This document shows positions 49,500 to 64,000 of a stretch of DNA of 64,000 nucleotides, in pieces. Source of the DNA: Bacteroidetes bacterium CG12_big_fil_rev_8_21_14_0_65_60_17 (lineage in GTDB: Bacteria; Bacteroidota; Rhodothermia; Rhodothermales; UBA10348); assembly GCA_002787815.1 (NCBI GenBank), contig PCUY01000057.1:69930-133929 (forward strand), in the 5' to 3' direction. Under the pieces are notes generated by a model that did not search any database, had not been told where the DNA came from, and worked only from the letters and a program-made list of their open reading frames with translations. The position numbers were made by a program, and so were the translations under genes. The number at the start of each line of letters is the position of its first letter. Within the stretch, counting starts at the first letter, position 1.

Positions 49500-51965
49500 A
49501 TGCATATCCTTCGTCTCTCGACGTTTCTGGGAATGATCTTGCTGGCCTGGACGCCGGCAAGCACCCTTGCACAGGTGCAACCAGACGCCTACACGCGCCC
49601 CGAAGTACTTGATGTTCTCGGACTCAGCGTGGAAGGTGATGTTGATGAATTCAGTCGCAGCTTCGTTCAACAAACCAGTCAATTGGCCATTGGTCAGAAA
49701 CTCTCCATTCCAGGCGACCCCGCCTTGAGCGATGCCATCCGATCCATCTATCGTCTGGGGACGTACGAAAATGTGCAGATTGTCGAGGAGCGGCGGGTCG
49801 GGTCCGGTGTTTTTCTGGCAATCCACGTACGGCGCGCGCCAACGCTGGGCGAGTACACCTTCTCGAATGTCAAGAAGGGACATGCAAAAGATATCAGAAA
49901 GGAAGTTCCTCTTGTTGCACGTGGTCCCGTCCAGGAAAGTGCTGTAGCCCGCTCCGTACAGATCATCAAGGATTTTTATGCAGATAAGGGACATCCGCTG
50001 GCCGAAGTCGAGATCGTTCGTGACCGGGTGGATGAGCGGACCCTCAATCTGGATTTCCGTATTGACAAAGGGCCGAAGGTCAAAGTCGAGGAAATCCGTT
50101 TCACAGGCAACGAGCAGGTATCTGACCGTCGGTTGCGGAAGGCCATGAAAACCAACAAAAACTCGTTCTGGAAATTCTGGAAGAACGGCAAGCTCAACCG
50201 GGAAGAATATGCCAAGGACATGGATCGGATTGTCCGCGCGTACAATGAGCGTGGGCACTATGATGCCCGTGTCCTGGAGGACACGGTCTATATAGCCGGC
50301 CTTGATGGGGGAGACCCGGAAATCCATGTGGAGGTCAAGGTGGAGGAAGGCCCGAAGTATCATATCCGCCGTATCCGGTGGGAGGGCAATACGCTGTTTT
50401 CCGATGCGCAGTTGACAGAGCGGCTGTCCCTGTTTCCGGGTGACGTGTACAATGTCAAGATGCTCGAGGAGAACCTGTTTGGTGTCGGCAAGAACAACGA
50501 CGTCTCGAGTCTCTACATGAATGCAGGGTACATGCGTTTCGGGGTTGAACCGGAGGTCCGCGTGCGGGGGGATTCCCTCGACCTTGTCATGAATGTGTTT
50601 GAGGGCGACGTGTTTGAATACGGAAACATCCGTATTGCGGGCAACACCACTACCAAAGAGCATGTCATTCGACGCGAACTGTCAACCATTCCGGGTTCGA
50701 CGTTCAGGCGGGATCAGATCCAGGAATCGGTACGCCGCCTCATGCAGTTGAATTACTTCACGCAGGAGTCCGTAGGAGCAGGCCCGGAAATTGACATCAA
50801 TGACGGCAGCAAGACGGTTGATCTTCAGTACAATCTCGAGGAAACCGGCACGAGCCATCTGGAACTCTCGGGTACGTGGGGGCAGTTCGGTCTCGTCCTG
50901 CAACTCCGGTTCAATTTCAACAACTTCTCCGCTCAGAACCTGTTCGATGGTAAAGCTTGGTCCCCGTTGCCTTCAGGCGATGGGCAACAGTTCAGTATAG
51001 GTGTTCAGACCAACGGGTCGCGGTTTCAACAGTATCAGCTGTCGTTCACGGAGCCGTGGTTTCGCGGAAAACCCAAACCGCTTGGGTTTTCCACTTCATT
51101 CTCAAGAATCCGGGGACTGACCATTCTTGACACGGGGACGGCTGGAAACGGACGTCTGCTCACGTTCTCGCAGAGTGTGTTCTATCAGCAGCGCCTTCGG
51201 TGGCCCGACAACTGGTTTCGAACATCGACCCGCATCGGATACCAGTACTTCCTGAACGAGGACTGGATATCCACGCTCCCGCAGGGCGTATCACAGCAAC
51301 TTACCATCACCCAGGACTTCACCCGGGACAACACGAATCATCCTCTCTTTCCCAGCCAGGGATCGAGCTTTCTGCTCTCTGCACAGATCGCTCCTCCCGT
51401 TGGGGATCTGATTCAGTTCCACAAGTGGAGACTGAATACGTCGTGGTATGCACCCATTACGCGAAAAATTTCCCTGTCGTTCAGTTCGGATTTCGGCTTC
51501 ATCGGCACGCTCAACGGGGAAGAGGTGGAATTCGAGCGCTTTGTTGTCGGCGGTTCTCCCTTCGAGACGCAGGGGTTTCTGAGCTTTTTCGGCAAGGATG
51601 TGATTTACATGAGGGGCTTCCCCCTGGCAGCTGTCGGACCGAGAAATGCGGACAATGAACCGGTTGGTGGTCGTATCCTGAACAAATATGGTGCTCAACT
51701 GACCTGGATGGCGGTCCAGTCCCAGTCGTTGCAGGCCGCGCCATATCTATTCATGGATGCAGCCAATGCATGGGACCAGTTCCGCGCGTACAATCCGACG
51801 GACGTCTTCCGGAGTGCCGGGTTTGGAGCGAAGGTATTTCTTCCTATTCTGGGTATGGTCGAGATGGCGTATGGATACAACTTTGATGAATTCACGCAGT
51901 TGACCAGTGGCCACAACGGATCCAAAAAGTGGACCTTTCAGTTCAGCCTCGGACAGGGCTTCTGA
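49500..51965 (+). CDS. bamA: outer membrane protein assembly factor BamA
   Basis: 821 aa. It has a signal peptide, POTRA-like repeats (e.g. VEEIRFTGNEQVSDRRLRKAM, IRRIRWEGNTLFSDAQL), and a C-terminal barrel ending in WTFQFSLGQGF. Confidence 0.9.
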   Translation: MHILRLSTFLGMILLAWTPASTLAQVQPDAYTRPEVLDVLGLSVEGDVDEFSRSFVQQTSQLAIGQKLSIPGDPALSDAIRSIYRLGTYENVQIVEERRVGSGVFLAIHVRRAPTLGEYTFSNVKKGHAKDIRKEVPLVARGPVQESAVARSVQIIKDFYADKGHPLAEVEIVRDRVDERTLNLDFRIDKGPKVKVEEIRFTGNEQVSDRRLRKAMKTNKNSFWKFWKNGKLNREEYAKDMDRIVRAYNERGHYDARVLEDTVYIAGLDGGDPEIHVEVKVEEGPKYHIRRIRWEGNTLFSDAQLTERLSLFPGDVYNVKMLEENLFGVGKNNDVSSLYMNAGYMRFGVEPEVRVRGDSLDLVMNVFEGDVFEYGNIRIAGNTTTKEHVIRRELSTIPGSTFRRDQIQESVRRLMQLNYFTQESVGAGPEIDINDGSKTVDLQYNLEETGTSHLELSGTWGQFGLVLQLRFNFNNFSAQNLFDGKAWSPLPSGDGQQFSIGVQTNGSRFQQYQLSFTEPWFRGKPKPLGFSTSFSRIRGLTILDTGTAGNGRLLTFSQSVFYQQRLRWPDNWFRTSTRIGYQYFLNEDWISTLPQGVSQQLTITQDFTRDNTNHPLFPSQGSSFLLSAQIAPPVGDLIQFHKWRLNTSWYAPITRKISLSFSSDFGFIGTLNGEEVEFERFVVGGSPFETQGFLSFFGKDVIYMRGFPLAAVGPRNADNEPVGGRILNKYGAQLTWMAVQSQSLQAAPYLFMDAANAWDQFRAYNPTDVFRSAGFGAKVFLPILGMVEMAYGYNFDEFTQLTSGHNGSKKWTFQFSLGQGF

Positions 51966-51986
51966 CGCCGTCCGGCGTACCGGAGA

Positions 51987-52547
51987 ATGTCCTCCAATTC
52001 AGACAGTAACCCCATGAGAGTGTCAACAATAGTATCGGGTCTCCTGCTGGTGCTGTCGGTGCAGACCGCTTCAGCCCAGCAGAATATTGCGTACATGGAT
52101 TCAGAGTACATTCTGGGCCGATTACCGGAATATGCCACCGTACAGCAGCAACTGGACCGTTTATCGGGTGATTGGCAGAAGGAACTGGACGCCATGAAGC
52201 GGGAACTGGACACCCGGTTTCGTGAATACCAGTCCCGGGAACTGCTCTACACACCCGAAGAGAGACAGAGGAAGCGCCAGGAAATTGTGCGTGCTGAGAA
52301 TGAGTTGGAGCAATTGCGAACGCGGTATTTCGGCCCGGAAGGCGAGATATTCACGCGGCAGGAACAGCTCATGAGACCACTGCAGGAGCGTATCCTGGAA
52401 GCCGTCGAGCAAGTGGCCACGGCGGAAGGATATGACTACGTGTTTGACATTTCAGGCGACTTTCTGTTCATGTTCCGACGCCAACAGTACAACGTCTCTG
52501 ATCTCGTGCTGAGAGAACTCGGCATAGACCTTGATATGAATCAGTAA
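51987..52547 (+). CDS. skp: OmpH/Skp-family periplasmic chaperone (copy 1)
   Basis: 186 aa. Signal peptide, IAYMDSEYILGRLPEY, a long charged coiled arm, and a position directly after bamA. Confidence 0.8.
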   Translation: MSSNSDSNPMRVSTIVSGLLLVLSVQTASAQQNIAYMDSEYILGRLPEYATVQQQLDRLSGDWQKELDAMKRELDTRFREYQSRELLYTPEERQRKRQEIVRAENELEQLRTRYFGPEGEIFTRQEQLMRPLQERILEAVEQVATAEGYDYVFDISGDFLFMFRRQQYNVSDLVLRELGIDLDMNQ

Positions 52548-52580
52548 CCACATTCAGTGAACACATAAGAACTCAAATCC

Positions 52581-53138
52581 ATGTACAAGCATTCACTCAC
52601 GCTACTCGCTCTTCTTCTGCTGGGCTCCAGCGCCATGGCGCAGTCTGCGGACAACTCCATTCGCATTGGCTATGCCGATCCGGAACTGATTATCCAGTAT
52701 ATGCCGGATTACCGATCCATACAGGAGGAAATTCAACGCGAGGTTGCAACGGGACAGCAGGCGCTTCAGGCCCTTGCGGAAGATTTCCAGGAACGTGTTG
52801 AGCGCTACGAGAAACAGCGTCCGCTGTTGACGCCCGAGCGCCAGCAGGAGCGTGAGTCCGAGCTGGCCCAACTCCAGAATGAAATCAGACAATCGGCCGA
52901 ATCCAAGGATGAGGAAATTGCCCAGAGGGAACAGGAGCTGATGGCACCGCTTCTGGATCGCGTTCAAACGGTTATTGATCGTATTGCGACGGCCAATAAT
53001 CTGGACGTTGTCATGCGTTCACCAGCCCTGCTTTATGTCAATGAAGACCGTGTCATGAATCTGAACCTGGATATCGCCCGGGAACTCGGTATTGAAATCG
53101 ACGAAGATTCCGAAGCGGTCCAATCGGTTGGAAACTGA
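52581..53138 (+). CDS. skp: OmpH/Skp-family periplasmic chaperone (copy 2)
   Basis: 185 aa. Signal peptide MYKHSLTLLALLLLGSSAMAQ, IGYADPELIIQYMPDY, coiled arm. Paralogue of the upstream gene. Confidence 0.8.
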   Translation: MYKHSLTLLALLLLGSSAMAQSADNSIRIGYADPELIIQYMPDYRSIQEEIQREVATGQQALQALAEDFQERVERYEKQRPLLTPERQQERESELAQLQNEIRQSAESKDEEIAQREQELMAPLLDRVQTVIDRIATANNLDVVMRSPALLYVNEDRVMNLNLDIARELGIEIDEDSEAVQSVGN

Positions 53139-53168
53139 TACGATAAAACGGACGGGAGTCCAAGCGCT

Positions 53169-54002
53169 TTGAGTACTGCGCATTCGGAATTTGACCCTGA
53201 AGCAGTGCGTCGTGTCACGACGCAGACATTACAGGAAATGAAGTCGGCTGGAACACCGATTGCCATGCTGACGGCATACGACTATACGTCCGCACGCATT
53301 CTGGATGGTGCTGGCATTGATGTCATCCTGGTGGGCGACTCTGCCTCCAATGTGATGGCAGGTCACGAAACGACCTTGCCAATCACGCTGGACCAGATGA
53401 TTTACCATGCCCAGTGTGTCGTGCGTGGTGTTGAGCGCGCTCTAGTAGTGGTGGATTTACCATTTGGATCGTATCAGGGAAACAGCCGGGAGGCACTGGT
53501 TTCGGCCATCCGCGTCATGAAGGAGTCGGGGGCGCACGCGGTCAAGCTCGAAGGAGGACGGGCCATTTGCCCAACCGTTGAGCGCCTTATTGATGCCGGT
53601 ATTCCGGTCATGGGACACCTTGGCCTCACCCCGCAGTCCATTTACCGATTTGGTACATATAAAGTCCGGGCACGGGGGGAGGAAGAGGCACGTATCCTCG
53701 AAGAGGACACGGCCATGCTGCAGGAGGCGGGTGTTTTTGCACTCGTTCTGGAGAAAATTCCTTCCAGCCTCGGCGGCCGTGTAAGCCATGTACTCGAGAT
53801 TCCAACCATCGGGATCGGTGCAGGGCCATCCTGTGACGGACAGGTACTTGTGACCCACGACGCACTTGGTCTCACGACAGACTTCAATCCCAGATTCGTA
53901 CGGCGATACGCGCAGCTCGATACGCTCATTGCGGGTTCCGTAAAGACGTTCGTCGAGGATGTCCGTTCACACAGGTTCCCTTCGGATGACGAAAGCTACT
54001 GA
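53169..54002 (+). CDS. panB: 3-methyl-2-oxobutanoate hydroxymethyltransferase
   Basis: 277 aa, TTG start in the track. [49 protein letters not shown]. Confidence 0.9.
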
Positions 54003-54786
54003 TCGCCCTTTGATTCTCGTCGCCAATGACGATGGAATAGATGCACCCGGTATCCTGTCGCTGGTGTCGGGACTGGATGGGCTGGGAGATATCATGGTAT
54101 GTGCTCCGATGGAGGAACAGAGTGCTGTTGGCCATGCCATAACCATGCGGGATCCCGTGCGGGCACGTGCCTGGCCCTTCCGTGGCCCCTCCGGACCGGT
54201 AGATGCCTGGGCCGTCAAGGGGACACCGGCGGATTGCGTCAAGTTGGCTCTGAACAAACTGGTACCCCGGCGACCCGATCTGGTCGTCTCGGGCATCAAT
54301 CACGGTCCCAATACAGCGGTCAATGTCCTCTATTCGGGTACCGTGAGTGCTGCCACGGAAGCATCCATCCTGGGTATACCCTCCATTGCATTCTCACATT
54401 GCAAGTGGGGTATCGGGGATTATGAGGCGGCAGCCCGAATAGCCCGGCAGATTGCAGAACATGTGTTGACACATGGAATGTCGACGGGAATTCTTCTCAA
54501 CGTGAACATACCCGATCTGCCGTACGAAGAAATACGGGGCATTATGACAACACGACAGGCCCGTTCCATGTGGGAGGAATCGTTCAGTGAGCGCAAGGAC
54601 CCGTTTGACAAGTCATACTACTGGTTGTCCGGGACGTTCGTGAACCTGGACAGTGGAAAGAATACAGATTTGCAAGCTGTTGAGGACGGTTATGTTTCTG
54701 TGACACCGATCATGCATGACCTCACGGCGCACGCGGCTCTTCGTGATCTTGAATCCTGGGATATCATGGGTGCACTCCATGGGTGA
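53986..54786 (+). CDS. surE: 5'/3'-nucleotidase SurE
   Basis: ATG 53986 gives [47 protein letters not shown]. Overlaps the panB end by 17 nt. Confidence 0.9.
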
Positions 54787-55258
54787 GTTGCGAGCCACGC
54801 TTGAAAAACAGGCCTCATCCTTTCACTTCACCGCCCGGACGGGCCGGGGGGCTACGGTCCAGATCGATGATCCGTCCTCGCACGCGGACGGCAAGGGTCA
54901 TGGCGCAAGCCCCATGGAACTGTTGCTGGTAGCCGTGGGTGGATGCAGCGCAATAGATATCGTATCCATCCTGGAGAAAGGAAGACACGTGGTGGATGCG
55001 CTGGATATAGACGTGCGCGGGGAAAAGCCGGACGATGCCGTACCGTCATTATTCCAGAAAATACACATCCGCTATGGATTCCGCGGAAATGTCCCGGTAG
55101 ACCGTGCCCGGCGGGCCATCGAGTTGAGTATCGGCACCTACTGTTCTGTAGCGCATACGCTGATGCCAACGGCACAGATCACATGGGATTTCACCATAGA
55201 TGGGAAGATCTTTGGCCCCGTCAACACTGCGCCGGGATTTACCGGCGAACCCAGATAA
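54779..55258 (+). CDS. OsmC/Ohr-family peroxiredoxin-like protein
   Basis: ATG 54779 (overlaps the surE stop). [25 protein letters not shown] and CSVAHTL carry the two conserved Cys contexts of OsmC. Confidence 0.8.
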
Positions 55259-57572
55259 GCGCCGTCTGCGCCGGCACGGTTACACGGCCCGATGCAGGGT
55301 CATGGACGGACGCTGCAATCCCGTCAGAATGTATCTGGTGGCCATCTGAGATCTGGATCCAATCTGCACCGGGAATAGAAAGCCCTTCGAATGTGCCTTC
55401 CGCCCTGCCGGAGTTGATGAGGACGAGTACGGTCCTGTCGACCAGATACCCGAGCATATCAGTGCGCTGAGGCTCGAAGAATCGGTAGTAATCAGCCGCC
55501 GGTTCATGACCGCCGACACGGAATACAGCACCGACGTTGGACGACCTGAAGTCCAACAGGCCTTTCCAGTATGCCAGCATGGCGTCGTAGTCCATGGGAC
55601 TGTCAGCTCCGACGGTATCCCACAGGTATTGGTTGGCGCGCCGCAGGTTGTATGTATCCCGTTTTCCGTGGATGTATATGGGACCAGAGTCCGTTTTTTT
55701 GACCAGTTCGACGAGTGGGGCTATGCCTTTGGAGCGCATGATTTCCGTACCACCGTGAAGCACAATGGGGCCAAGTGATGTCGTGAGCAGTGTCGCCGCA
55801 ATTCGGAACGCCGCTTCATCCACGTGCTTGAGCCCATTCCAGTCCATATCGGAAAAACGGTCAGCCAGCGTCCAGTTATCGTGGATGTCGAGGTAATTGA
55901 TGCCCCGGTTCGGGTCCATTTCCTCCGGGAAGGAATTGGTCAAACCGCGCTTTGTCTGCTCACGAACCGAACCGTCACCTCCGGCAAAACCACGATCCGT
56001 ACGTGGGTCCACCGGATTGGACACCGGTCCCTTGAATGCATTCCTTGCATCGTCCTGGAAGTAGGTGATGGGCGCATCTGCCTTGTACCATCCGAAATCC
56101 GGATCCGAGGCTACTCTAACGTCCGTAGGGGGAATCCAGGCTTCACCGTAAATAATCAGATCTTCCGGCAATTGATCCTTGACCCAGCGCAGCGTCTGCT
56201 CATCAATCTGACCAGCAAGATCAATCCGGAATCCATCGACGCCAAGCGCATTGACCCAGTGGCTGAGTTGGTCCAGGATCCAGCGTTGGACCATGGGACG
56301 CTCTTCCGACTTTATTTCATTACCGAACGGGCCAATATGGCGCAGCGAGTCATCGGTTCTGTGATAGAAGGGGAGATCGATGGCATTGAAATTGAACAGT
56401 AGGTGTCTTCCGTCCATGTTTTCACCGGTATGGTTCGGGACCACGTCAATAATGACAGACAGCCCCTGATCATGGAACGCCTCGACAAGCGCCTTGAACT
56501 GTTCGCGCTCCGCGCCGGGCTCGGTTCGCGGGTCGCGAAACCGGGATTCGACCGCAAAAGCATGCGTGGTTCTGTAGCCCCATTGATAATTTTCTTCCGA
56601 AATGCCCTGTTCTATCATGTACGGGTCGTCCCGGAATGCACGTTGCCATTCATCGTCAGGATAGTGCAGATACTCCTGGACGGGCATGAGGTGGACTACG
56701 TTGATGCCCAGGTCGACCAGATAGTCGAAACCAATGGCTCGCCCCCGGCTGTTCGTCAAACCAGGCATGGCCATGGCACGGAATGTGCCCCGGAGGGCTT
56801 CATCTACCGGCAACCTGTCGGTGAAGTCCTGGACGTGTACCTCATAGGCGATGACATCTTCCATACGAGGCCGGCCTCCGGTTACGGGTGAAGGTGGAGG
56901 CGTGTCCCGCCAGACGCGTGCCTTTCCGAACGAGTCATCGCTGACCAGTGCATATGGGTCTGTGATATAGGCTGGATGCGTGCCGTAGAAGTAGTTGCCC
57001 GGCTCGTCAGGCCCATGAATGGTGTATGTGTAGTACACACCGTGGTGGTTTCCGGGCTCGGTGGCTTCCCACACACCGTCGTTGTCGACACTCATGATCA
57101 CCGTTCGGTCGGGTACTTCTGCAGGTGTGTCCCGATCCGAGTAGAGATGCAATTCAACACCGAATGCCCGCGGGGCGAAGAGCCTGAAGGTTGTTTCGCT
57201 CCCGTCGACCGCAATGGATGCCCCCAAGGTCTTATCGGAATACAGTGTGGAAAACCATGCATCCCGTCGGATGAAGTGCTCTTCCCCTGTGGGGAGATAG
57301 ATGAGCGTATGCAGCCTGCGAACGTCAAGAGGTGTTTTGGGGACGAGGAGGTAGGACTGTGCCCGTTTGGGAAGGACGTTGCTGACCTGAACGTCCCCGG
57401 ATGCAGCAGTCCGTATCCGGAATTCGGACGCGTCGGGCTGGACGTCAGGATCCGAGACATGGACTGTGATCAATGATTTGTTCACGATCTGGGCACGTGA
57501 GATGTGCTGTCTCGCGGATGTCGGCGTTGAGATCAGCAGCAGGACGCAGAAAGGCAGGATTACGCGGAGCAT
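55239..57572 (-). CDS. secreted GH13 pullulanase-type alpha-glucan debranching enzyme
   Basis: 777 aa. Signal peptide MLRVILPFCVLLLISTPTSARQ. YQWGYRTTH (YNWGYDP-like), DVVPNHT, GFRIDLAGQ, YGEAW, NYLDIHDN (GH13 regions I-IV). The 3' end overlaps the osmC 3' end by 20 nt. Confidence 0.85.
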   Translation of the reverse strand: MLRVILPFCVLLLISTPTSARQHISRAQIVNKSLITVHVSDPDVQPDASEFRIRTAASGDVQVSNVLPKRAQSYLLVPKTPLDVRRLHTLIYLPTGEEHFIRRDAWFSTLYSDKTLGASIAVDGSETTFRLFAPRAFGVELHLYSDRDTPAEVPDRTVIMSVDNDGVWEATEPGNHHGVYYTYTIHGPDEPGNYFYGTHPAYITDPYALVSDDSFGKARVWRDTPPPSPVTGGRPRMEDVIAYEVHVQDFTDRLPVDEALRGTFRAMAMPGLTNSRGRAIGFDYLVDLGINVVHLMPVQEYLHYPDDEWQRAFRDDPYMIEQGISEENYQWGYRTTHAFAVESRFRDPRTEPGAEREQFKALVEAFHDQGLSVIIDVVPNHTGENMDGRHLLFNFNAIDLPFYHRTDDSLRHIGPFGNEIKSEERPMVQRWILDQLSHWVNALGVDGFRIDLAGQIDEQTLRWVKDQLPEDLIIYGEAWIPPTDVRVASDPDFGWYKADAPITYFQDDARNAFKGPVSNPVDPRTDRGFAGGDGSVREQTKRGLTNSFPEEMDPNRGINYLDIHDNWTLADRFSDMDWNGLKHVDEAAFRIAATLLTTSLGPIVLHGGTEIMRSKGIAPLVELVKKTDSGPIYIHGKRDTYNLRRANQYLWDTVGADSPMDYDAMLAYWKGLLDFRSSNVGAVFRVGGHEPAADYYRFFEPQRTDMLGYLVDRTVLVLINSGRAEGTFEGLSIPGADWIQISDGHQIHSDGIAASVHDPASGRVTVPAQTALIWVRR

Positions 57573-57610: not shown

Positions 57611-60600
57611 TCAGGCGGCGCGTCCGGGAAAATGGAATATTCTGGCGACGTTATTCTCCTGGTGAGGTGCCATGAGTCCGGTCACCTGACGAAGGAGTTG
57701 TACTTGGGACACGGCACGATCTGTGACTGCCGACACGTGTACATTCGTGGTTTCCGAATCGACATCCTCCCAGAATATGTGAAGGCTGTCCTGGGCACCA
57801 TCATGCAGGTGTTCACGCATGAAGGTGGTCAGTTCGTCACGGATTGTCGCCAGGTTGGCAGAGCGCGATACGGGAACGCACAAACTGACGGCCTGTGCGT
57901 TGTCCAGGAACGTGACGGCGGGACCCAGCATAGCCGCTGGATTCAGTACGACCGACTCGCCTGTCGTGAGGTCTAATCTGACGGTGCTCCTGCTGAGCTT
58001 GATGTCCCGGGCCCTGACTCCATGGAAGAGAACAACAAACCGATTTGCTGCACGTAACTTCCATCGCCACGACGTCATGGCCACAACAAGTTGTATGGCC
58101 GACGAGGATTCGATGGCGATGGAAACGGCACACAGGGCAAGCGCAGTTGAAATTCCCGCAAGCGGCCCCAGAACGGTCACAACCCCTGCCAGAAGGAGTG
58201 CATACAGCAGACACTGGCGTACATACCACAGCAGATGGGAATCGCGGAGATGCGAAATATTGCCAAGTTCAGTGTGGCGAGTGCGTACGACATGTCGAAT
58301 AACAAGATCAGCGGCAATTACATAGGACAGGAACGAAAGAATCCAGAGGAGTACGGCTACGGGAGTGACGGGGGGTAGTGGCACGACAAATCCGGGTGAG
58401 GCCGCGGAATGGTCACGGGAACGGCCCCTGGAAAGATCGTATTCCTGAGCCGGCACAGCGCTTTCATCAGGATGTGCGGTGTCCTCCACGGGTGGGATCA
58501 CCGGCATGAGCACTGCCGATGCAGCCAACGTGTCTGCATCATGTTGAATCGGTCGTGGGGATGACGTCGACCCGCGGAATTGTGATGGAGATGGTGACGG
58601 TGACGAATCCGGGGCCGGTGCAGGAGGAGGGGATGGAGATCCAAGTTGAAGCGATCCGGACGATCCTGTGTCCTGGAACCGGATGGTGCGTTTTACCGGA
58701 ACGGCTTCGAAATACCGTGTCGTGACGGCGCCACCGGTGACGGTAATGCTGTATTCCTGCTCTGCAAAGGTGTGGTAGGCGGGAAGACGATCAGCGGATA
58801 AGAGCCGCAGCACATAGGAGCCGGCGGGAACGCCCCGGACTGTAAAAGAGCCGTTTCTGTCGGTTCGTACCCGCCAGGAACGCGCATCGGACCGAAGTTC
58901 AATCACGGCACCAACTATGCGTTCCTTCTCGACCATTCCGGATCCTACATCGCGGTGCAGAAGACCCGCTTCTCCGGGTGGGCCGAGCCGGGCTACATGA
59001 CCGGAAACACTGCCGGCAGAGACGACCGGGATATCGATCGTACCTGCGTCAGCTCCGACGAGGTACGGCATTTCCGTCAGTGTAACCATCCCATTCGGGA
59101 GGGATACTTGATTGACTTCCAGGTATTCCGAATGGCCCATCGACTTGGGAATGCGAAATTTTCCGTGGGCGTCACTGATAACCAGGTGTGAACCGTAACG
59201 AAGAAGAACACCTTCTATGGGAATACCGGTATCACCATGGTAGACATGGCCATGTAACACATCCAAGGACGCATCACTGGACCGGGGCACGGGTATTCCC
59301 AGAGGCACGGTCACACCCATACGGAATTCCATTTTCCTGTCACTGGATCGTCCGTCCGACATACTTGTCTGGCTCTGGACGAACGCACGACTGCCCGACT
59401 CGAACTGTTTTGACGCCTGGAAAGTGAGGCTGCGGTATGTCTGGGTTTCCCGACCAGTGACCCGATTCTGGATGCCACCCACGGACACGTGCAATTGAGC
59501 AGGAAGTTGGACTCCGGCACGGATGCCATATTGCTCGTACTGCTGTCGGATGCGGGACGAGATCAGGAAATCCGAGTAACGGTCTCCACTGGCCGATATG
59601 CTGAGCCAACGGGTGGGGCTGATCCGCGCTTGGAGGCGGGTTCTGTGGGTGGGCGAAGCCCTGTTGTCCTGGTCAATCCGTTGACCGAAATCCCGGGTTG
59701 CGGTGATGCCCATGCGCGAGCGCTGCAGACCTGTTGTTGCGCGCAGGACGCGTGATTCCGATGAAAGACGGTGGTCCGGCGTGCGGAGCACAATACGGTC
59801 GCGTGTGGCCCGGGCGGATGTGGTCCATGTTGTGGCATGAATGCGGCGGGAATAGGTAACTCCCAGCTTTGCAACGTGCAGCACTCGGTTGGAACCCAGG
59901 TCAGAATTCCTGTACTGGACCTGGAAGGACTCCTCCAACTGAAGTCCGGGCAGCAGTTTGAGGCGAACAGATTCGGAAAAAGACCGGGTGCCGGATTGTG
60001 AGCCCGGAAGTGACGTGGCAGCGCTCAGCGCCTCCATGCGGCTTTGAACTGGACCCCTGGTATACGCCGTCTCGACGCGACACGAGGGGTCTGAAAGGCG
60101 ACCACTGCCCGACAGGCCACATTCAGCCCCGATCAGCGACCGTGACCCGGCCGGTGTCCAGTCGTAGGCAAGCGTTGCAATCGATCCGGAGTAGAGCCCC
60201 TTTCGCGTCAAGAGGTTTGCCGAAAAAAATGAAGATGTGTTCAGGTGTCGGCGTACCGAGACGCCCGCAAGTGCGTCGTCGGGTGCGTAGGAGCGACTTC
60301 GGCTTCCAAGCAACGTTACGTCCCATGCGTTGAAGAGCATTCGGGATGATGCTCCCAGTCGGTAGACACCCCATGTCGTAAGTCGCGACATATTCTGTGC
60401 ATGATCTCCGACGACGACTTCCACCTTTTCAGACGTGTAGGAGATGCGGAATTCATCTCGTGCACCCAAGAGTCCCTGGGACGAGTTACCGGCAAGGGTA
60501 CCAACGACTTCCACGTCTCCATTGAAGGCATCGAATGCAGTCGAAATGTGGGCGACGGGTTGTGTGCCTCGTTCGTTTCCGATGGCTTCCATCGTGAGGG

Positions 60601-61372
60601 CAAGAGGCACGGGCTGGCCACGCGTTGCCATCTTTTCATACAGCGGAATGATGTCCGTTCGAATGGAGACATGGTCTTCGATCCCGGGGGAGTCGACAAT
60701 GCGAGCTGTGATGGTGTATGACGCCGCCGTGACGGCTTCCGTGTCGCTGTTGGTTGTGAGGGAGATGGGGACCACCGCGGATTCACCCGATTCAAGCTCC
60801 AGACTGTGGGCACCAAGGTGTAATTGTCCGGCATCGGATCCATCCCAGGAGAGCGCCATGCTGGCACGTGCGTTCCCGTCGTTGAATACGGTCAGTGCGG
60901 CCTGGACGGTCTTCCCGGCTGCAACAAAGGGCGGCGTTGATTCCATGTGCATTGACAGACCGTACTGCGTATCGACGGAAACGCTGACCGTTTCGGAGGC
61001 AGATAATTCCGTTTGACCAGGGGCAGAGACAGAGAACGTGACGTCATACGAACCGGCCAGGAACAGGTCAGGGACGTGGACGCTGACCAGGCGGACAACA
61101 GGATTTTCAGGACGGACTGTCATTTCCGACTGCGGGCGGAGACTTCTCCAGCCCGCCGGCATGTCAATACGGGGTGTCAGTGTGGCCAAGCCGGATCCGG
61201 AGAGTTCGACCCTGAATGCCAGTGTCATGACGTCGCCAGGTGCAACGCGGATGGGTGACTGGCCGACAAGGGAAACGAAAACAGAGTCGGGTCCTGAAAC
61301 GATTTCAGCCGCCCCCTGTGGGGGGACGGCTAAAAACATGATAAACAACACTATGTGTCGAAGCAGAGGCAC
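57611..61372 (-). CDS. 1253-aa multidomain envelope protein: signal peptide, two Ig-like (NEW3/CARDB-like) domains, ~440-aa beta-barrel-like region, two CarboxypepD_reg-like domains, Pro/Ser-rich linker, 3-TM MscS-like C-terminal module
   Basis: Single uninterrupted ORF. The GTG start (cac 61370-61372) directly abuts the TAA of the upstream gene. Domain calls come from motif reading: PAGWRSL..VHVPDLFLAGSYDV (NEW3-like); alternating strands LHVAKLGVTYS / WLSISASGDRY / TYRSLTFQASKQF / MEFRMGVTVPLG; GHVYHGDTGIPIEGVLL..SDAHGKFRI and TDRNGSFTVRGVPAGSYVLRLL (CarboxypepD_reg-like); SPSPPPAPAPDSSPSPSPS; TM helices at aa ~1003-1100; TGESVVLNPAAMLGPAVTFLDNA (MscS beta-domain-like). Confidence 0.85.
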   Translation of the reverse strand: MPLLRHIVLFIMFLAVPPQGAAEIVSGPDSVFVSLVGQSPIRVAPGDVMTLAFRVELSGSGLATLTPRIDMPAGWRSLRPQSEMTVRPENPVVRLVSVHVPDLFLAGSYDVTFSVSAPGQTELSASETVSVSVDTQYGLSMHMESTPPFVAAGKTVQAALTVFNDGNARASMALSWDGSDAGQLHLGAHSLELESGESAVVPISLTTNSDTEAVTAASYTITARIVDSPGIEDHVSIRTDIIPLYEKMATRGQPVPLALTMEAIGNERGTQPVAHISTAFDAFNGDVEVVGTLAGNSSQGLLGARDEFRISYTSEKVEVVVGDHAQNMSRLTTWGVYRLGASSRMLFNAWDVTLLGSRSRSYAPDDALAGVSVRRHLNTSSFFSANLLTRKGLYSGSIATLAYDWTPAGSRSLIGAECGLSGSGRLSDPSCRVETAYTRGPVQSRMEALSAATSLPGSQSGTRSFSESVRLKLLPGLQLEESFQVQYRNSDLGSNRVLHVAKLGVTYSRRIHATTWTTSARATRDRIVLRTPDHRLSSESRVLRATTGLQRSRMGITATRDFGQRIDQDNRASPTHRTRLQARISPTRWLSISASGDRYSDFLISSRIRQQYEQYGIRAGVQLPAQLHVSVGGIQNRVTGRETQTYRSLTFQASKQFESGSRAFVQSQTSMSDGRSSDRKMEFRMGVTVPLGIPVPRSSDASLDVLHGHVYHGDTGIPIEGVLLRYGSHLVISDAHGKFRIPKSMGHSEYLEVNQVSLPNGMVTLTEMPYLVGADAGTIDIPVVSAGSVSGHVARLGPPGEAGLLHRDVGSGMVEKERIVGAVIELRSDARSWRVRTDRNGSFTVRGVPAGSYVLRLLSADRLPAYHTFAEQEYSITVTGGAVTTRYFEAVPVKRTIRFQDTGSSGSLQLGSPSPPPAPAPDSSPSPSPSQFRGSTSSPRPIQHDADTLAASAVLMPVIPPVEDTAHPDESAVPAQEYDLSRGRSRDHSAASPGFVVPLPPVTPVAVLLWILSFLSYVIAADLVIRHVVRTRHTELGNISHLRDSHLLWYVRQCLLYALLLAGVVTVLGPLAGISTALALCAVSIAIESSSAIQLVVAMTSWRWKLRAANRFVVLFHGVRARDIKLSRSTVRLDLTTGESVVLNPAAMLGPAVTFLDNAQAVSLCVPVSRSANLATIRDELTTFMREHLHDGAQDSLHIFWEDVDSETTNVHVSAVTDRAVSQVQLLRQVTGLMAPHQENNVARIFHFPGRAA
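58373..58660 (-). other. Pro/Ser/Ala-rich low-complexity linker (aa ~905-1000) inside the 1253-aa ORF
   Basis: Translation: GSSGSLQLGSPSPPPAPAPDSSPSPSPSQFRGSTSSPRP...PVIPPVEDTAHPDESAVPAQ...SPGFVVPLPP. Confidence 0.8.
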
Positions 61373-62185
61373 TTAGTTGATGGCAAGAGTGTATTCGGCT
61401 CCGAAGACTTCGTTCATTCCAGCGTCCATGATTACAAGGGCCTTGTACTCACCTTGAGGTAGCGATCCGAGTACGATTTTCTGTTTTACGGATGTCCCCG
61501 GATAGATCCTGTTTTTGAATCCATCCCGTTTTCCGACCGGATTGCCCATGGCATCGTAGAGTTCGATCCAGATATCGGGCTGTGCCAATCGGTTTCCGTT
61601 GTTCACGATGGAAACATCCAATTGGGCGTGACCTTGTTCGTTTTTTACAAGTGTGCTTTCCATGATGTTCAGGAGACTTGATCCGGTTCCTGTGATATGG
61701 GTAGCAACTTGTATGCCATACCGGGTAATCTGTCGAATACCGAATTCTGCCTTCGTAGAGTCTGCATTGGTACGCGACTCCGGTGAATCCACGGGGATAC
61801 CCTCGACCATTATCATGCTCCACCAGGAACCGGAAAGGGTATCAGAGTCGGGAACGTGTACCGCGTACGGGATGGAAACAGTCTGAAGGGGTGGAACGCT
61901 TGTGGAGGAGAGACCGAGATCAATCCAGCGTGCATTGGATCGGGCCAGGGCTCCCGGTGCGCCGAAGAAGTTGGATCCATCGAAATGGAACGAATAATCG
62001 GTCTGGTAAATCCGGATTTCCTCCATCACGTTCGAGTCGTTCCGGACCGAAATCGTGCCGTGGTATGTGGTGCCGGGTTCGGCAACCTGGTCATGACTCA
62101 GTTGGCTCCGTACGGAAATCTGCGCTTCGGCGACAGATGTGCCGCATAGTGCAAGTAAAAGTGTAGGTAAAACAAGACGTGTCAT
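61373..62185 (-). CDS. 270-aa secreted two-beta-sandwich protein, DUF916/DUF3324 (CscA-like) architecture; candidate periplasmic chaperone/assembly factor
   Basis: Signal peptide MTRLVLPTLLLALCGTSVAEAQ. Domain 1: EPGTTYHGTISVRNDSNVMEEIRIYQTDY...VPPLQTVSIPYAVHVPDSDTLSGSWWSMIMVE...RYGIQVATHI. Domain 2: AQLDVSIVNNGNRLAQPDIWIELYD...IYPGTSVKQKIVLGSLPQGEYKALVIMD...FGAEYTLAIN. ATGA overlap with the upstream gene. No C-terminal TM anchor. Confidence 0.8.
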   Translation of the reverse strand: MTRLVLPTLLLALCGTSVAEAQISVRSQLSHDQVAEPGTTYHGTISVRNDSNVMEEIRIYQTDYSFHFDGSNFFGAPGALARSNARWIDLGLSSTSVPPLQTVSIPYAVHVPDSDTLSGSWWSMIMVEGIPVDSPESRTNADSTKAEFGIRQITRYGIQVATHITGTGSSLLNIMESTLVKNEQGHAQLDVSIVNNGNRLAQPDIWIELYDAMGNPVGKRDGFKNRIYPGTSVKQKIVLGSLPQGEYKALVIMDAGMNEVFGAEYTLAIN

Positions 62186-62667
62186 TGTGCCAGAAGGGTA
62201 TAGGTTACTGTGTGCGTATCGTCTCCGTGTGTTTGACTGTTGCCGTCCGCAACACGTGCTGAGGCCCGGTATCGAAGCAGTCCGGTACCCTGTTGGGATC
62301 GGGATCCGGGCAGGATATTCGTGAGGATGTCTTCATCGAACATGCCATCGACGAGTTCGACCTCGGGGTGCATATCGACCATGCTTCCGGTTCCATAACT
62401 GGTTACCTGCAATTCCACGAACAACCGAAAGTGCTGTGAGGTAGCCATGGTTGAGACCACGAGTTTGGCGGGAACGCCGAGATTGGCGTCCCAGAATATT
62501 CGCGTACCGGCATCCGTGGCATCGACAGGCTCTCCGCCGGGCGGAGCTTCCGATATCTCGAGTGTAATGGGGCCACCACCGGTCAGGAATTCAAGCCTCT
62601 GCGCATCGACACTTGTCGCAGAGGTACCCATTATAATGACTGCTAATATGTAGCGTAACAACGACAT
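62182..62667 (-). CDS. small secreted beta-rich protein, divergent member of the local three-gene family (candidate minor subunit)
   Basis: 161 aa. Signal peptide MSLLRYILAVIIMGTSATSVDAQ. Shares the family layout and the C-terminal HTVTYTL motif with the two upstream paralogues. Starts 8 nt after the upstream stop. Confidence 0.75.
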   Translation of the reverse strand: MSLLRYILAVIIMGTSATSVDAQRLEFLTGGGPITLEISEAPPGGEPVDATDAGTRIFWDANLGVPAKLVVSTMATSQHFRLFVELQVTSYGTGSMVDMHPEVELVDGMFDEDILTNILPGSRSQQGTGLLRYRASARVADGNSQTHGDDTHTVTYTLLAQ

Positions 62668-62675
62668 GTGCCCAG

Positions 62676-63248
62676 TCAGTTGGATGTCAACGTGAAGGTT
62701 ACTCGGCGCGATATGCCTGCAGTGCCAGTTGGTGCGACCGTGATATCGGCATGGCCTGTGTAGGTTATCCCGAGGTTGGTCGCAGCAATCAGGTTGACAC
62801 CTTTGACGAGGTCGACCGGATCGCTGCTGAGTATTCGACGGGTGGCCGTTGCGCCCGGAGGAGGCGTGAGTTCGACCGACAGTTCCATACCGGCAGGAAA
62901 TTCCGTATCGAGTGACCCCACGATTTTCTTGTCACTTCCGTTGACCGTGAGTGCATAGGTCGACCCGGAGTGGGTGACCGGTGAGAGCGGCGTTCCTGCT
63001 TCCGCCTCGGCAATGGGGATCAGTACGTCACCGCTTATTGCGATCCGGTTTATTTCCAGCACGCGAACCGTGACTGTCTGGGAGAGCGATACCTGGTTTC
63101 CGGCAAGTGGAATGGCGTCCGGAAGGGGAGGTGGAGTCTGGGCCCACGCAGACGGGGACAGCCCAAGCAGCGCCACAACACACGCCGAAAAGAGAGAAAG
63201 GGCCCATGCCGCGAGTCCAACAGTCTTATAACGCTGTGGATGCACCAT
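62676..63248 (-). CDS. small secreted beta-rich protein, paralogue 2 (has an extra Pro-rich N-terminal extension after the signal peptide)
   Basis: 190 aa. Signal peptide ending SPSAWA-QTPPPLPDAIPLAG. Clear by-eye paralogy to 63289-63774. AAGGAG lies ~8 nt upstream of the ATG. Confidence 0.8.
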   Translation of the reverse strand: MVHPQRYKTVGLAAWALSLFSACVVALLGLSPSAWAQTPPPLPDAIPLAGNQVSLSQTVTVRVLEINRIAISGDVLIPIAEAEAGTPLSPVTHSGSTYALTVNGSDKKIVGSLDTEFPAGMELSVELTPPPGATATRRILSSDPVDLVKGVNLIAATNLGITYTGHADITVAPTGTAGISRRVTFTLTSN

Positions 63249-63288: not shown

Positions 63289-63774
63289 TCAGTTGGTAAT
63301 CGTGTACGTGACGGTGTAACCGGTCGACACCAGTTTGCCAGCTGCGGCCGTTGCCGAGAACGTGTAGTTCAAGGCCAGTCCGGACGCGGCTATGGTAGAC
63401 ATGCCGGTCACGACATCGGATGCAGTTTCCGTCAATGCAACGTCCGTGCTGCCCGTTGCACCGAGGGGTGCAGCCGCATCCACGACCAGTGACATGTTCG
63501 CCGGAAGGTTGGTATCAATCTCCGCCGTGATCTTCTTGGCCGACTCGTTCGTCGTGACGGCATACGAGGCTGAACCGGATACCGGATCCGGATCGGAACC
63601 CGGCGTCGCCTGGTCGATGGTCAGTGTGACGTCGCCCGTGATGGCCAGGACATTGATGGCCGCCACCTCCATGGTGACGGTATGGCCTTCGGTATCTGTC
63701 TGGGCAAATGCGACATGCGACACACCGAGTGCGACGAACATGGCGAGCGCAAATGCACGTAGTGTTCTATTCAT
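63289..63774 (-). CDS. small secreted beta-rich protein, paralogue 1 (first gene of the operon; candidate major subunit)
   Basis: ATG 63774 (ORF open to 63879) gives MNRTLRAFALAMFVALGVSHVAFA-QTDTEG. A perfect AAGGAGGT lies 8 nt upstream. 161 aa, Thr/Ala/Val/Ser-rich, no Cys. Confidence 0.8.
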   Translation of the reverse strand: MNRTLRAFALAMFVALGVSHVAFAQTDTEGHTVTMEVAAINVLAITGDVTLTIDQATPGSDPDPVSGSASYAVTTNESAKKITAEIDTNLPANMSLVVDAAAPLGATGSTDVALTETASDVVTGMSTIAASGLALNYTFSATAAAGKLVSTGYTVTYTITN

Positions 63775-63828: not shown

Positions 63829-64000
63829 CTCAAACCGGGTATCGTCTGCTTTCCGGGTTCCTGAAGCCATGAATTGCATGACGACGTTACCGTTTCAAGA
63901 ACGACAAGGTCTTGGTAACACTAAGCCCGCCAACACGTAATCGGTATGCGTAAAGGCCTGATGTGACGCCCTGGGGACGCCACATGACATCGTGCCAACC

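Follow-up and report, generated by a model that had tools for sequence, protein, structure and literature searches.

Chaperone-usher (CU) pili are regarded as mainly proteobacterial, and the Bacteroidota are known for type V pili, which need no usher. In the ushers FimD and PapC, an N-domain precedes a 24-strand beta-barrel with a plug, a domain of ~85 amino acids (aa) that interrupts the barrel between its sixth and seventh strands, and two beta-sandwich domains make up the C-terminal part. The Gram-positive WxL clusters, which encode the DUF916-DUF3324 protein WxLIP, belong to monoderms and, to our knowledge, have no outer-membrane barrel. We have analysed a 64,000-nt stretch of DNA from Bacteroidetes bacterium CG12_big_fil_rev_8_21_14_0_65_60_17 (contig PCUY01000057.1, positions 69,930 to 133,929; referred to as the window), in which an open reading frame (ORF) on the minus strand at 57611..61372 encodes a protein of 1253 aa from a GTG start. 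We refer to this protein as the platform. On evidence that is computational throughout, we favour, with a probability of roughly 55 %, the reading that its N-terminal 895 aa constitute an usher-like outer-membrane platform for fibre assembly or secretion, belonging to an undescribed chaperone-usher-like system to which sequence methods are blind. The models suggest that this system is most likely related to CU pili in structure and not in sequence.

The platform is predicted to follow the same general order as FimD/PapC, that is, a signal peptide, N-terminal beta domains, a large central barrel and two C-terminal sandwich domains. The original prediction, made from the letters of the window alone, had proposed a signal peptide, two immunoglobulin (Ig)-like modules, a middle region of ~440 aa and two CarboxypepD_reg-like modules in this order, and Pfam, for the flanking modules, and an AlphaFold2 (AF2) model bear this out, with coordinates that agree to within about 10 residues. 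The signal peptide (aa 1-22, MPLLRHIVLFIMFLAVPPQGAA; 61307..61372; here and below, coordinates are those of the window, minus strand unless stated otherwise) is indicated by a hydrophobic segment at aa 7-25, by AF2 predicted local distance difference test (pLDDT) values below 50 for aa 1-28 and by the relatives, whose signal peptides are clear at the same place. In one relative (P0020), a complete signal peptide is found at the start that corresponds to the platform GTG. The public gene call of the platform starts at the internal residue M12 (1242 aa), and the signal peptide is missing from it for this reason. Two Ig domains follow, both presumably periplasmic. The first (aa 30-135; 60968..61285) is of the NEW3/CARDB type, being a beta sandwich in the AF2 model with a Pfam NPCBM_assoc/NEW3 match at aa 62-116 (E 1.2e-6), while the second (aa 139-242; 60647..60958) was delimited from AF2 and from Pfam Ig_VWA7/FixG_C/CARDB matches at aa 145-232. 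These two domains are mutual repeats (hhalign Prob 96%), and so are the two sandwiches on the C-terminal side (hhalign Prob 97%), which are likewise assigned to the periplasm. The first of the latter (aa 705-797; 58982..59260) is a transthyretin/CarboxypepD_reg-like sandwich according to AF2 and the family profile, positions 706-879 of which matched, in a comparison with the PDB, the transthyretin-like domains that NOMO2 has in tandem. The second (aa 814-892; 58697..58933) is a CarboxypepD_reg domain by AF2 and by Pfam (PF13620, aa 817-885, E 7.6e-10), and Pfam detected CarboxypepD_reg in 46/46 of the platform relatives checked. In the nature of these flanking parts the platform departs from FimD/PapC, since it has two CARDB/NEW3 Ig domains where ushers have a single N-domain and its C-terminal domains are of the transthyretin/CarboxypepD_reg type.

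The middle ~440 aa are predicted with high confidence to form an antiparallel meander, which presumably closes into an outer-membrane beta-barrel of ~26 antiparallel strands without a plug insertion (aa 255-693; 59294..60610), as judged from AF2, Foldseek and the family alignment. The AF2 model, which covers platform aa 1-900 and was built from a 67-sequence family alignment, has a mean pLDDT of 91.7 and a predicted template modelling score (pTM) of 0.64, and contains at aa 255-693 an uninterrupted series of 26 strands, each antiparallel to its next neighbour, with pLDDT mostly >90. The segments between these strands have a mean length of 2.9 aa on one side of the sheet versus 6.0 aa on the other, and short turns alternating with longer loops are the pattern expected of periplasmic turns and external loops. 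In an alignment of 124 family members, a conserved stretch of ~9 residues, hydrophobic at ~4-5 alternate positions, is present in every one of the 26 strands. The most conserved motif of the barrel, GD...LSPLT..G.YG.G, lies at aa 322-345 in strands 5-6, and the family consensus of the last strand is Y.L.Y..PL, which we take to resemble the beta-signal recognized by the beta-barrel assembly machinery (BAM). Barrel length is almost invariant across the family despite a sequence identity of 20-30% outside the closest relative.

An exhaustive HMMER search of 1.84 billion representative sequences identified 66 cluster representatives (~900-1300 aa) that carry the middle region at the same place (~aa 240-710), one of them at 64% identity, and the relatives of the platform share a constant order of two Ig domains, a ~470-aa region and CarboxypepD_reg domains, followed by a variable C-terminus. 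Word-indexed protein searches with the barrel region or with the C-terminal tail gave zero matches each; because the exhaustive search found 66 relatives, these zeros are not evidence of rarity. Platform aa 250-700 had no Pfam or NCBIfam match, even at E<=10, and no match to the PDB was obtained by phmmer with the whole platform protein. A simple beta-moment amphipathicity score was dropped as a test for a barrel, having failed to separate the BamA barrel from soluble domains.

When the whole AF2 platform model was compared with the PDB by Foldseek, ushers were its best structural match. FimD headed the results (9fy9_D, E 2.3e-12; 3rfz_B, E 4.3e-12 over 804 aligned columns), together with PapC (7lhg_C, E 5.8e-10), and these FimD/PapC matches, which span 750-800 aligned columns, rank above LptD, the second-best class (8h1s_C, E 2.3e-7), and 18-strand porins (E about 1e-5). 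The matches aligned over about the length of the middle region were all membrane barrels, namely the PapC pore 2vqi (1.4e-6) and OccK, OccD, MOMP and chitoporin (about 1e-5). LptD, with its 26-strand barrel, is similar to the platform in strand count; however, the platform has two Ig domains and no beta-jellyroll at its N-terminus, its other flanking domains and its operon differ, its locus has no LptE-like lipoprotein partner, and no LptD (PF04453) match was found in it with Pfam or NCBIfam. We take the Foldseek result to mean 'usher-like architecture' and not to be proof of homology. The outer-membrane barrel proposed originally thus receives in silico support from the 26-strand AF2 meander, the barrel neighbours and the conserved dyad runs. 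In comparison with a plugged, 24-strand usher barrel, the predicted strand array of the platform has ~26 strands and not 24, and no plug.

The strongest argument for the usher-like reading is the gene context. As in FimD/PapC systems, the operon of the platform codes for a periplasmic protein with two Ig domains and for small secreted subunits that are paralogues of one another, a likeness that lies in structure and synteny and not in sequence family. The gene directly upstream of the barrel gene, a position shared with the genes of PapD-type chaperones, encodes a secreted two-Ig-domain protein of 270 aa (61373..62185), a candidate periplasmic chaperone of PapD/WxLIP shape as judged by its signal peptide, AF2 and Foldseek. 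The platform GTG start abuts the TAA stop of this gene (TAAGTG junction; window 61360-61400, minus strand), which suggests that the translation of the chaperone-like gene is coupled to that of the usher-like gene. Three genes for small secreted subunits, recognized by signal peptide and family, come next: a type B subunit of 161 aa that ends ...HTVTYTLLAQ (62182..62667), a type A subunit of 190 aa that ends ...RRVTFTLTSN (62676..63248) and a second type A subunit of 161 aa that ends ...GYTVTYTITN (63289..63774), the last counted, as in the public call of 161 aa, from M36 of a 196-aa ORF. Families A and B are mutually homologous (hhalign Prob 99.2%), and family B was found in 73 loci. The subunits have conserved alternating C-terminal strands such as TVTLTLTN, which we assume to be comparable with the F strand at the C-terminus of CU pilins.

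The association of these genes extends well beyond the window. In a scan of GTDB with one genome per species, the 270-aa gene was present in at least 191 species, and the 79 loci retained comprise, by label, about 29 from Ignavibacteriota, 23 from Bacteroidota, 11 from Rhodothermales and 16 from other metagenome-assembled genome bins, so that the platform differs from FimD/PapC in having a taxonomic range centred on the first three of these groups. A barrel-family gene starts <=1.5 kb downstream of the 270-aa gene on the same strand in 64 of the 67 loci with >=2.5 kb of downstream sequence, and one follows the 270-aa gene in 77/79 loci overall; each of the 55 loci whose upstream sequence is long enough carries between one and seven paralogous subunit genes. 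The usher-like order put forward in the original prediction is thus supported both by FimD/PapC as the top PDB matches and by the flanking chaperone-shaped and subunit genes. In most Ignavibacteriota- and Bacteroidota-type loci (among L021-L085), the platform gene is followed at once by an extra subunit gene, with as many as seven upstream, and the window locus has its three subunit genes upstream of the platform and none downstream.

The 270-aa protein has 215 homologues with 43-80% identity, all annotated as hypothetical, and is far better conserved across phyla than the platform (20-30%). Its AF2 model (pLDDT 92.9, pTM 0.84) consists of two Ig-like sandwich domains, with a low-confidence loop of 24 residues (aa 131-154) between them. 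The protein resembles PapD-type chaperones (FimC, CfaA, CsuC, Caf1M) in being secreted, ~250 aa in size and composed of two Ig-like domains, which in PapD are arranged as a boomerang, but it differs from them in the low-confidence interdomain loop and in having a domain 1 of the platform Ig2 family. Its best PDB match by Foldseek, ahead of all CU chaperones, is WxLIP of Enterococcus faecium (9i25_C, E 2e-13, template modelling (TM) score 0.51/0.54), and the next matches are the CU chaperones CfaA, CsuC, FimC, FaeE and Caf1M (E 3e-9 to 1e-7, TMt about 0.5-0.57). According to prediction, a flexible loop of WxLIP supplies the strand that completes the beta sandwich of its WxL partner (PMC10599100). 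This is the same principle as donor-strand complementation, and by analogy the interdomain loop of the 270-aa protein (aa 131-154) would parallel the strand-donating loop of WxLIP. Domain 1 of the 270-aa protein and platform Ig2 are homologous (hhalign Prob 93%, E 3.7e-7) and have in common the CARDB/NEW3-type signature 'AG..y...i.V.N.GN'. Because they share this family, the system appears to be built from its own domain stock, and the platform may, to judge by sequence, carry a chaperone-like module in cis. A lipoprotein reading of the 270-aa protein was rejected, as LALC is a poor lipobox and its Cys is unconserved.

A number of results weigh against the usher-like reading and have to be considered. 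Pfam gave no match to Usher (PF00577), PapC_N (PF13954) or PapC_C (PF13953) in the platform (E<=1) or in 46 relatives; PDB searches with the family profiles of the platform, the chaperone-like protein and the subunits retrieved no ushers, chaperones or pilins; and hhalign of the platform family against the five E. coli ushers FimD, HtrE, SfmD, YraJ and YehB was not significant (P 0.02-0.06), although the weak alignments were nevertheless co-linear. Similarly, no PapD_N or PapD_C (PF00345/PF02753) Pfam match was found in the 270-aa protein, which gave P 0.013 by hhalign against five E. coli chaperones, and hhalign of the subunit families against E. coli pilins was not significant. In having no detectable sequence homology the platform stands apart from FimD/PapC. 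The proposal that the usher-like order is built here from different domain families agrees with the absence of any Usher, PapC_N or PapC_C sequence signal. In the structural comparison, TM scores to FimD are low (0.28/0.31, root-mean-square deviation about 19 Å), values of about 0.3 being expected for multi-domain models and for barrels of different size, and Foldseek pairs large barrels with one another generically. The barrel is predicted to have ~26 strands, versus 24 in FimD/PapC, and, again unlike these ushers, has no plug domain: in the AF2 model the strands are separated by 12 aa at most, and none of the 124 family members has an insertion of more than 14 aa in the barrel. The motif of strands 5-6 (GD...LSPLT..G.YG.G) and the flanking domains are candidates for gating a pore of ~26 strands. 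Aromatic residues account for 6.8% of the middle region versus 16.3% of the BamA barrel of the same genome, and its Arg content is high (11.2%). Finally, the 270-aa protein is matched best by WxLIP, which acts as a stable partner at the cell surface and not as a transient chaperone.

The match to WxLIP is also the first of the points in favour of a different function, which we consider possible but on balance unlikely, namely that the barrel is an export pore for a surface complex that does not polymerise. The locus would then correspond, in diderms, to the WxL/WxLIP cluster of Gram-positive bacteria, and the barrel would give the small proteins access to the cell surface, where they would remain in discrete complexes, possibly with the 270-aa protein still bound, and make no donor-strand-exchange pilus. 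WxL clusters likewise contain small and large partner proteins, and a 993-aa surface protein (see below) is part of the Rhodothermales-type clusters. However, the 270-aa protein, although closest to WxLIP in fold, ends with domain 2 and thus has no counterpart of the C-terminal transmembrane helix of WxLIP, and no DUF916 or DUF3324 Pfam match was found in it. Its partners are not WxL-domain proteins, there being no WxL Pfam match in the subunits, and WxL clusters have no barrel partner. The presence of several paralogous subunits with a conserved terminal strand is, moreover, more typical of fibres.

If the N-terminal 895 aa of the platform are usher-like, as we favour, the system may be envisaged to operate as follows. 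The platform would be exported by Sec and its ~26-strand barrel put into the outer membrane by BAM, while the two CARDB/NEW3 Ig domains and the two transthyretin-like domains would remain in the periplasm. The small subunits, of which the window encodes three paralogues, would also be exported by Sec and then be bound in the periplasm by the 270-aa protein, which would probably complete the subunit fold with a strand from its long flexible loop, in the manner of PapD chaperones and WxLIP. The resulting chaperone-subunit complex would dock on the periplasmic domains of the platform, where the subunits would be joined into a polymer or moved to the outside by way of the barrel. The computations themselves show domain architecture, predicted fold, structural neighbours, synteny and family distribution; the location in the membrane, the polymerisation of subunits, the chemistry of donor strands and the gating are what we infer from these.

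The platform family further differs from FimD/PapC in the addition of a C-terminal SPOR, LysM or three-helix inner-membrane module. In the window protein, a Pro/Ser-rich unconserved linker (aa 900-1003; 58364..58675; S 19%, P 19%, family top-residue frequency 0.09) is followed by three hydrophobic helices (about aa 1007-1029, 1047-1072 and 1080-1098) and a ~155-aa tail ending -RAA, for which hydropathy suggests a putative anchor in the inner membrane and a domain in the cytoplasm (57614..58363). A census of 124 platform-family members found a SPOR module in 49, a LysM module in 13, a three-helix tail like that of the window protein in 16 and other modules in 9, the C-terminus being short or truncated in the remaining 37. 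SPOR and LysM bind peptidoglycan, and the C-terminal modules of the platform are for this reason placed in the periplasm; because the strand count is even, both ends of the barrel would lie on the same side of the membrane, and these two considerations together place the N-terminal Ig pair in the periplasm as well. The role of the C-terminus would be to fix the barrel to the envelope, by SPOR or LysM in most relatives and by the Pro/Ser linker and three helices here. All 16 relatives with the three-helix tail, and two variants with one helix (P0022 and L017), end in -AA (RAA, KAA, DAA or EAA) with an LRLV-like motif before it, and by analogy the terminal -AA could be a cytoplasmic degron resembling the ClpXP type. 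The ~155-aa tail had no Pfam match and no homologues by word-indexed search, whose zeros do not indicate rarity. An MscS-like identity of the three-helix tail, an impression gained by eye, was dropped because Pfam gave it no support.

SPOR/LysM modules or inner-membrane anchors at the C-terminus of most relatives would also suit a second alternative, which we regard as doubtful, that the protein is an envelope tether or large porin. Here the barrel would staple the outer membrane to peptidoglycan (the SPOR/LysM relatives) or to the inner membrane (the window protein), like OmpA-/OmpM-type tethers, and the neighbouring genes would be unrelated cargo or accessories. The very short, length-invariant loops fit a structural role, and the region also holds bamA and two ompH/skp genes; however, operon linkage with the chaperone-shaped and subunit genes is near-obligate, with a stop-start junction consistent with coupling, the N- and C-terminal periplasmic domains are usher-like with FimD/PapC as top matches, and a barrel of 26 strands is far bigger than a tether requires. 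The other possibility raised in the original prediction, a middle region that is soluble, rich in beta structure and periplasmic, here as part of a protein anchored in the inner membrane, is very improbable, for although the three C-terminal hydrophobic helices would hold the window protein in the inner membrane, and aromatic content is low, Arg/Ser content high and the loops unusually short on both sides, the 26 next-neighbour antiparallel strands are modelled by AF2 with very high confidence, all structural neighbours aligned over about the length of the middle region are membrane barrels, dyad hydrophobic runs of membrane-spanning length occur in every strand, and most relatives have no inner-membrane helices and carry peptidoglycan-binding modules instead.

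An extension of the usher-like reading can be offered more tentatively, as a possibility against which the odds lean. In members of the Rhodothermales type, one polypeptide would run across the whole envelope, from the usher-like barrel in the outer membrane through the ~100-residue Pro/Ser linker and three inner-membrane helices to the ~155-aa cytoplasmic domain ending in -AA, so that the cytoplasm might sense, regulate or degrade the pore. The system as a whole would be an independent chaperone-usher invention, convergent or extremely diverged, assembled from Ig domains of the CARDB type and transthyretin domains and linked in evolution to the WxL/WxLIP clusters of Gram-positive bacteria. 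We are aware of no firmly documented case in which a beta-barrel protein has an anchor in the inner membrane as well.

Literature searches of incomplete coverage, directed at usher-like systems of Bacteroidetes, Ignavibacteria and Rhodothermus and at WxL in combination with ushers, yielded no description of the system, and its operon of usher-, chaperone- and subunit-like genes is invisible to Pfam and NCBIfam. If the usher-like reading is correct, the range of the chaperone-usher principle would grow by a further part of the bacterial tree, the operon being present in >=191 species-level genomes (Ignavibacteriota, Bacteroidota, Rhodothermales and others), and a function would be assigned to about five 'hypothetical' gene families. 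The platform family would also represent a natural experiment on usher design, in which a plugless barrel of about 26 strands is combined with a tether to peptidoglycan or to the inner membrane, and a relationship between Gram-negative chaperones and Gram-positive WxLIP is suggested.

On the upstream side, the window ends within the gene for the 993-aa surface protein mentioned above, of which it contains the last 37 codons and the stop (63887..64000; full gene L001:1960-4941). This protein has a type IX secretion system C-terminal sorting domain (Por_Secre_tail, E 3e-5). Its gene heads the cluster in loci of the Rhodothermales type, in 12 of which its position immediately ahead of the subunit genes is conserved; the protein could serve the system as a surface partner or adhesin, or could be just a neighbour. 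Downstream of the platform, a type I pullulanase-like GH13 gene lies on the same strand at 55239-57572, and osmC, surE, panB, two ompH/skp genes and bamA lie on the other strand at 49500-55258. The gene order of window positions 49500-57572 is also kept in a related locus (L007), and this neighbourhood of GH13 and osmC-to-bamA genes probably reflects general synteny and not functional linkage.

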